Assembly (NCBI RefSeq): GCF_003334335.1
Contig: NZ_QOWQ01000002.1
Direction: 5' to 3' (one strand)
DNA length: 64,000 nt
Source: Escherichia coli
GTDB taxonomy: Bacteria > Pseudomonadota > Gammaproteobacteria > Enterobacterales > Enterobacteriaceae
How positions within the stretch are numbered: the stretch's first letter is position 1; every line of letters starts with the position of its first letter. Positions 58,342 through 58,762 of this stretch are shown piece by piece. The notes beneath the pieces were generated by a model. It saw only the letters and a program-made list of their open reading frames with translations. It had not been told where the DNA came from and did not search any database. A program made the translations under genes and the position numbers.

Positions 58342-58548
58342 TCAAATTTTTCCAATCGCCACTAATTGTTCCATGCACATTTGTAGTAAAAACAGTGGAC
58401 TGCCTTCTACCGGCTTTTCTTTAGCCAGCAACGAAATCTGTCGATAGAAAGTTGGTTCGAGAGGAACGGAACACAATTCACCTGCAATGCTTTTCAGCGT
58501 TAACTCTGGTTGTAAGGCGATGCCTAATCCCTGTCGAATAAAATTCAT
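58342..58548 (-). pseudogene. yfaH: Remnant of a LysR-type regulator (C-terminal co-inducer-domain fragment), YfaH
   Basis: 68-aa ORF resembling the C-terminus of LysR-family proteins; in-frame stop 5 codons upstream of its ATG and no DNA-binding domain upstream. Confidence 0.55.
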
Positions 58549-58762
58549 CGCTGTATCCGCCTGATTAAATTCACATTTTATCTGCTGGGCGCACTATTAG
58601 TGGTAGTGGCTGGTGGAATCTATGCGCTGCAAATGAAGGGTAAAAGCGGTGTCAAGCTAGTAGTGGCAAAAGAAATTCATTAATACGACACGTTTCATTA
58701 AGATTTTCCTCAGGTAACCACCTATAGTCATTGTCGTTAATAAAAATGACAGGCGATAGGGT

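Follow-up and report, generated by a model that had tools for sequence, protein, structure and literature searches.

Positions 58342-58683 of the window, the whole stretch of 64,000 nucleotides of Escherichia coli DNA that was analysed, are very probably a deletion scar, in which two non-functional gene stubs, one from a LysR-family regulator gene (yfaH) and one from an MFS transporter gene, meet at their truncated 5' ends as the outcome of one 1,879-bp deletion. The anatomy of the locus, its junction, its polymorphism, its synteny and the relaxed constraint on the remnant are established and are described below together with the alternatives; the coordinates of the features are collected in Table 1. 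The pseudogene status of yfaH itself is already known, the gene being flagged as such in the K-12 RefSeq record NC_000913.3 and treated by PGAP as an incomplete LysR gene. New here, at the level of curation, are the precise deletion junction, the MFS stub beside yfaH, the frequencies of the alleles and the original pairing of the LysR gene with the MFS gene.

Table 1. Features of the glpQ-inaA interval, in window coordinates
Feature	Position	Strand	Details
GC-rich hairpin	58308..58335		12-bp stem, between the convergent glpQ and LysR stops; fold -23.2 kcal/mol, z = -6.4
yfaH ORF (b2238)	58342..58548	-	68 codons, ATG start; ORF listing
yfaH', LysR-family regulator pseudogene fragment	58342..58584	-	Codons 213-292 of the ancestral 292-aa protein, plus stop
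Deletion junction	58577..58584		One remaining copy of the 8-bp direct repeat TTTATCTG
MFS transporter pseudogene fragment	58579..58683	+	Codons 363-396 plus stop; last transmembrane segment and tail
Tandem in-frame stops	TAG 58594-58596, TAA 58597-58599	-	Codons -16 and -17 from the yfaH ATG
Native spacer, MFS stop to inaA ATG	58684..58762	+	79 bp; collinear with intact alleles, and with the 'empty' B2 allele from about 58665
inaA (lipopolysaccharide kinase InaA)	58763..59413	+	Intact; ORF listing, RefSeq annotation

Two gene stubs and the junction between them

When the full-length 292-aa LysR ortholog of E. coli O157:H7 was used as a tblastn query, its residues 213-292 matched the window with 69 of 80 positions identical (86%, E 9e-45) and its residues 1-212 found no match within 58000-59000. 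Three-frame translations of 58342-58764 on the minus strand were also devoid of an HTH. These results agree with an earlier note on this DNA, which had claimed that the 68-aa ORF resembles only the C-terminal part of LysR-family regulators and that the 214 bp before inaA hold no HTH. The intact ortholog carries HTH_1 at residues 3-63 and LysR_substrate at 88-267 of the full-length protein, and the remnant has lost the HTH, the linker helix and the greater part of the effector-binding domain. Of the attributes of a functional LysR regulator, the window thus has neither HTH_1 (PF00126) nor a complete LysR_substrate domain (PF03466, about 209 positions), nor a divergent target promoter with a T-N11-A site, the control region having been deleted. 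Searched with Pfam, the 68-aa ORF alone matched LysR_substrate only weakly (residues 2-44 against model positions 144-189 of 209, i-E 0.0075), and the LysR identification was therefore based on the intact orthologs instead.

Homology to LysR runs 12 codons upstream of the yfaH ATG (QIKCEFNQADTA) and ends at 58584, and these 243 nt are annotated by PGAP as 'LysR family transcriptional regulator, incomplete, missing N-terminus'. The ATG itself corresponds to Ile225 (ATC) of intact Escherichia alleles, the ATC>ATG change being common to all deletion alleles, and the 68-codon ORF is just the LysR tail downstream of a start codon made by this Ile>Met replacement. Read in frame upstream of the ATG, the translation runs through HYH, two stops and CAQQIKCEFNQADTA to the initial M; the nearest in-frame stops are this tandem pair, and not one 5 codons upstream of the ATG as had been stated, and they sit past the junction, in the reverse complement of MFS coding sequence. 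The substitutions common to all scar alleles are doublets one base apart (CACCCG>CAGGCG, ATCAGT>ATGAAT, TTATTA>TTACAA), located at 58511-58572 in minus-strand codons 216-237 of the LysR remnant. Independent point mutations do not usually give such doublets, which may stem from multi-nucleotide mutations or from a short tract of gene conversion.

Between the start of the yfaH ORF and the inaA ATG (58549-58762), the earlier note was right about the length of 214 bp and the lack of an HTH, but it had overlooked that this interval contains an MFS stub of 34 codons and then the native 79-bp spacer. The translation of the stub (YLLGALLVVVAGGIYALQMKGKSGVKLVVAKEIH, followed by a stop) is identical at 32 of 34 positions to residues 363-396 of the 396-aa MFS protein of O157:H7 (tblastn, E 2e-17). 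A functional MFS transporter has twelve transmembrane segments in two six-helix halves and an MFS_1 domain, and residues 363-396 of 396 are all that the window holds of it. The ORF listing has no ATG, GTG or TTG ORF of at least 30 aa in this plus-strand frame. In K-12-like genomes the stub is named 'hypothetical protein, incomplete, missing N-terminus' by PGAP, and it is without an entry in the feature table of NC_000913.3.

The order of genes at the intact locus, as found in E. coli O157:H7, EC17GD31 and O145, is glpQ, LysR (292 aa), MFS (396 aa) and inaA, with only the LysR gene on the minus strand. Compared with these intact alleles by blastn, the window falls into two collinear blocks with 13 nt in common, 58100-58589 and 58577-58900. 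The 8-bp sequence TTTATCTG is present at both deletion end-points of intact alleles, 1,879 bp apart (6377 and 8256 in the allele L005, 7122 and 9001 in that of O157:H7), and K-12 retains one copy; at the junction an imperfect repeat, ATTTATCTG(C)TGGG, reaches to about 58589. Two collinear blocks with a repeat at both end-points are what a deletion between short direct repeats leaves behind. The same junction was found in 6 of 6 sampled deletion alleles, and its identity in six independently sampled scars favours one event. The deletion took LysR codons 1-212, the whole shared control region (151 bp) and MFS codons 1-362, leaving behind 80 LysR codons and 34 MFS codons; the earlier idea that the regulator alone was lost does not hold, as the 5' parts of both genes and the region between them went together.

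In the proposed sequence of events, the ancestral state would have been a LysR gene on the minus strand and a divergent MFS gene on the plus strand, both lying between glpQ and inaA. Within E. coli, a single deletion between the two copies of TTTATCTG, by replication slippage or some other microhomology-mediated illegitimate recombination, would then have cut away the HTH, the linker, most of the effector-binding domain, the region of the T-N11-A dyad and most of the MFS gene.

Around the scar, 58100-58900 is 100% identical to E. coli K-12 MG1655 (NC_000913.3), where the order is glpT-glpQ-yfaH-inaA-yfaE-nrdB. The hairpin at 58308..58335 is probably a terminator shared by glpQ and the LysR gene; being a hairpin without a T-run, it is overlooked by the promoter/terminator scan, which gave no sigma-70-like promoter or terminator site on either strand of 58250-58850. 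In EC17GD31 a 1-nt deletion just before the usual LysR stop shifts the frame, which extends 7 codons into the hairpin. An Rfam scan of 58200-58850 yielded no fitting family, its only hit being a sub-threshold one to RmaA (24 bits against 57, E 0.08), which was taken as chance.

The intact LysR-MFS pair and its distribution

In all intact alleles the gene divergent from LysR is that of the 396-aa MFS transporter, at an intergenic distance of 151-186 bp. A dyad of the T-N11-A type, ATTAAAAcGATTAAT, is essentially invariant in this intergenic region in all eleven sequences from five genera (alignment columns 22-36, positions 7042-7056 of L005) and lies 22 nt from the LysR start codon, consistent with a candidate LTTR binding site. 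A divergent target together with a T-N11-A dyad is the usual LTTR arrangement. The arrangement of the genes and the conservation of the dyad suggest that the LysR protein regulated the transporter gene.

With HTH_1 and LysR_substrate and a position head-to-head with a transporter gene, the intact ortholog is like the canonical LTTRs with a divergent target, and CynR, GltC, AlsR and CidR were its best full-length NCBIfam matches. Unlike them, it scores far below every equivalog cutoff (e.g. GltC, 129 bits against 350) and is therefore an uncharacterised LTTR, while the K-12 copy, in contrast to any canonical member, is without every part required for DNA binding. The intact 396-aa transporter has its best matches, nearly full length, in the YhhS/YfcJ-like MFS models of NCBIfam (PRK05122, PRK12382), but with scores of 112 against a cutoff of 374 and 85 against 364 it belongs to neither subfamily; unlike these transporters, K-12 retains the last 34 residues only.

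Among 5426 complete E. coli genomes, the K-12-type scar was counted in 3075, the intact LysR-MFS pair in 1213 and an 'empty' spacer in 1057, the remainder (about 80) showing other rearrangements such as IS1 insertions. The yfaH locus is thus absent, in the form of the 'empty' allele, from about 20% of the genomes, which include ST131, strain 536 and a Nissle derivative, all of which we take to be phylogroup B2. The 79-bp spacer between the MFS stop and inaA is kept in all three allele types. The 68-aa yfaH sequence was found in Shigella too. As observed in strain 382634_2f (L003 1634-1704), the 'empty' allele has neither gene nor stub, and a private 71-bp spacer extends from the glpQ terminator to the MFS stop codon; compared with the intact allele, this spacer shows no similarity beyond chance 9-11-mers. 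The B2 'empty' allele is probably a separate, older loss.

The intact pair adjoining yfaE-nrdB was found in Escherichia cryptic clades (two species), E. whittamii, Pseudocitrobacter and two Kluyvera species, and it also occupies the syntenic site of Salmonella enterica and Citrobacter werkmanii; syntenic intact orthologs outside E. coli, lying between glpQ and inaA or yfaE, were recorded in six other species and five genera. This distribution indicates that the conserved unit is LysR plus the MFS gene and that the truncation arose within the species E. coli. In Escherichia and Pseudocitrobacter, inaA is present between the MFS gene and yfaE; in Salmonella and Citrobacter (L021, L022) and in Kluyvera (L011, L014) the MFS gene directly abuts yfaE, without inaA, so that the position of inaA at this locus is itself lineage-specific. 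Intact LysR orthologs at this locus, which the earlier note had proposed to look for by tblastn, are present in other E. coli and in other genera, which upholds its view of yfaH as the decayed remnant of a LysR regulator and dates the truncation to within the species; a conserved stand-alone protein with no intact LysR ortholog at the syntenic position, the finding it had set against that view, is not what the genomes display.

Several further variants of the locus were observed. Insertions of IS1 or rearrangements occur in a few strains (L007 7287-7984), and in strain 2020C08-115 IS1 joins inaA to nudI-ais-arn, the glp side being wholly replaced. In some strains about 1.7 kb of extra DNA separates glpQ from the LysR gene and codes for a hypothetical protein of 356 aa that is rich in Lys, Asn and Ser (L001 5353-6423 in O157:H7; L006 3474-4544 in APEC O78, frameshifted; L008 2080-3147), for which no NCBIfam or PADLOC match was obtained. 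The segment is an insertion/deletion polymorphism in its own right, as intact and scar alleles alike can carry it. The allele of E. coli O145 RM12275-C1 (L019 2467-3509) is a mosaic, with an MFS protein 99% identical to that of O157 and a LysR protein only 84.5% identical; over the last 80 LysR codons dS exceeds 2, and the intergenic region resembles that of Salmonella, which suggests that the regulator half was imported by recombination from another species. A 3.5-kb contig labelled 'MAG: Collinsella sp.' (JAIJJM010000334.1, L008) has 99% protein identity to the E. coli LysR, MFS and glpQ products and almost certainly entered this actinobacterial MAG as a contaminant during binning.

Constraint on the remnant and alternative explanations

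Over the 80 shared codons, the dN/dS of the stub against the nearest intact E. coli alleles was 0.79-1.45, an imprecise value because only 15-16 substitutions underlie it (non-synonymous, 11-12.5; synonymous, 2.5-4), and among intact alleles it was 0.03-0.19. K-12 has replacements at four residues (Y216, H220, P221 and L237) that do not vary among 10 intact orthologs of five genera. A 1-nt deletion within the 68-aa ORF causes a frameshift in strain 4114, and new stops have appeared in the upstream LysR codons of JE86 and MS1665. What characterises a LysR-derived pseudogene is thereby present, namely homology to part of an intact syntenic gene and relaxed constraint with secondary disruptions, the dN/dS being drawn from small counts. 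On these sequence comparisons, the stub is drifting neutrally under relaxed constraint. Most of the sampled deletion alleles keep the 68-aa ORF uninterrupted, and public data contain 255 nearly identical sequences called as proteins; both observations are expected for a young pseudogene and compatible with expression.

The open frame, in K-12 as in most deletion alleles, could also be read as the mark of a functional stand-alone 68-aa protein, co-opted from the tail of the LysR effector domain after the deletion. YfaH has its own NCBIfam equivalog (PRK09729/NF007272, 68 positions), and a CpxR study lists yfaH as differentially expressed (PMC9600279), so that the region may be transcribed. Against such a role, the dN/dS is about 1 with conserved LysR residues lost, the frame is shifted in strain 4114, and the promoter scan, empty on both strands, leaves yfaH without a recognisable promoter; in addition, the equivalog model scores above its cutoff on the full-length regulator itself, over residues 226-292, and therefore describes a fragment, not a family. 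The locus is also dispensed with by the genomes carrying the 'empty' allele, and yfaH was swapped for a resistance cassette, used as a linked marker, when MG1655 strains were constructed (PMC2714960). Consequently, co-option into a functional protein is highly improbable, and it is equally doubtful that the LysR tail with its new ATG is made as a 68-aa product, possibly stress-responsive (Cpx). If it were, YfaH would be a small protein of recent origin, specific to its lineage and derived from a pseudogene, and it might, for example, disturb the oligomerisation of other LysR-type regulators.

The earlier note had paired yfaH with inaA as a formerly divergent regulator and target, of which the regulator alone had decayed, and in K-12 the two do face away from each other at just 214 bp. 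In all intact alleles, however, the divergent partner is the MFS gene, inaA being downstream of it on the same strand, about 1.3 kb further on; the LysR-MFS pair is conserved without inaA in the three genera named above, and the 214 bp hold an MFS 3' fragment and not a decayed HTH or control region. Furthermore, the inaA promoter is known to be activated by MarA (PMC5257004) and, by the title of Rosner & Slonczewski 1994 as cited there, inaA is activated by SoxS. A search for the marbox consensus gave no site with 2 or fewer mismatches near inaA, and the best local marbox-like site (58685-58704, 3 mismatches) is a weak match that serves as a lead only. This site falls in the 79-bp spacer, which presumably carries inaA's own promoter, which has no terminator-like site and whose RNA fold is not significantly structured (z = -1.4). 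With no such site behind the transporter gene, LysR-dependent read-through is conceivable, and in intact Escherichia alleles transcription from the transporter promoter could run on into inaA; this is the only sense in which the idea of inaA as a target of the regulator might partly survive, and as a whole the pairing is very unlikely. Thus inaA is a neighbour of the scar and not the LysR partner; it is unaffected by the deletion and keeps its own upstream spacer. The reverse history, with the K-12 arrangement ancestral and the LysR-MFS pair gained by insertion in the 'intact' strains, could draw on the polymorphism of the locus, with its third, 'empty' state in B2 strains, and on the clearly mosaic O145 allele. 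The fragments that K-12 keeps from the ends of both genes, in frame and at high identity, already refute it, as an insertion could not have produced them, and the pair also occupies this site in six other species, spread over five genera. No mobile-element feature was found at the locus boundaries, where there is only the 8-bp direct repeat of internal coding sequence, and insertion can be given practically no credence.

Annotation and significance of the locus

The yfaH gene of K-12 (b2238; UniProt 'Putative protein YfaH', YFAH_ECOLI) has the same sequence as the window. Its K-12 record is ORF-based and covers 207 nt; the homology described here is 36 nt longer. The adjoining MFS stub is missing from the K-12 annotation and bears only the PGAP name 'hypothetical protein'. 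In the searchable literature, no description was found of the deletion junction, of the identity of the lost partner gene or of the allele frequencies, and 'yfaH' or 'b2238' is mentioned only incidentally, as a marker site or in lists of uncharacterised or regulated genes. In the annotation of K-12, the yfaH pseudogene should cover 243 nt instead of 207 and the adjoining 105-nt MFS pseudogene fragment should be added.

Taken by itself, the event is a routine gene loss by short-repeat-mediated deletion within a species and has little biological weight. It does mean that inaA should not be presumed a former LysR target, and that the locus, with its three clean states (the intact pair, the scar of K-12 type and, in the sampled B2 strains, the empty spacer), can be used to mark lineages. 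At least five enterobacterial genera have conserved the intact LysR-MFS pair, which is uncharacterised; as K-12 is without it, the study of this regulator and its transporter needs strains such as O157:H7 or Salmonella.
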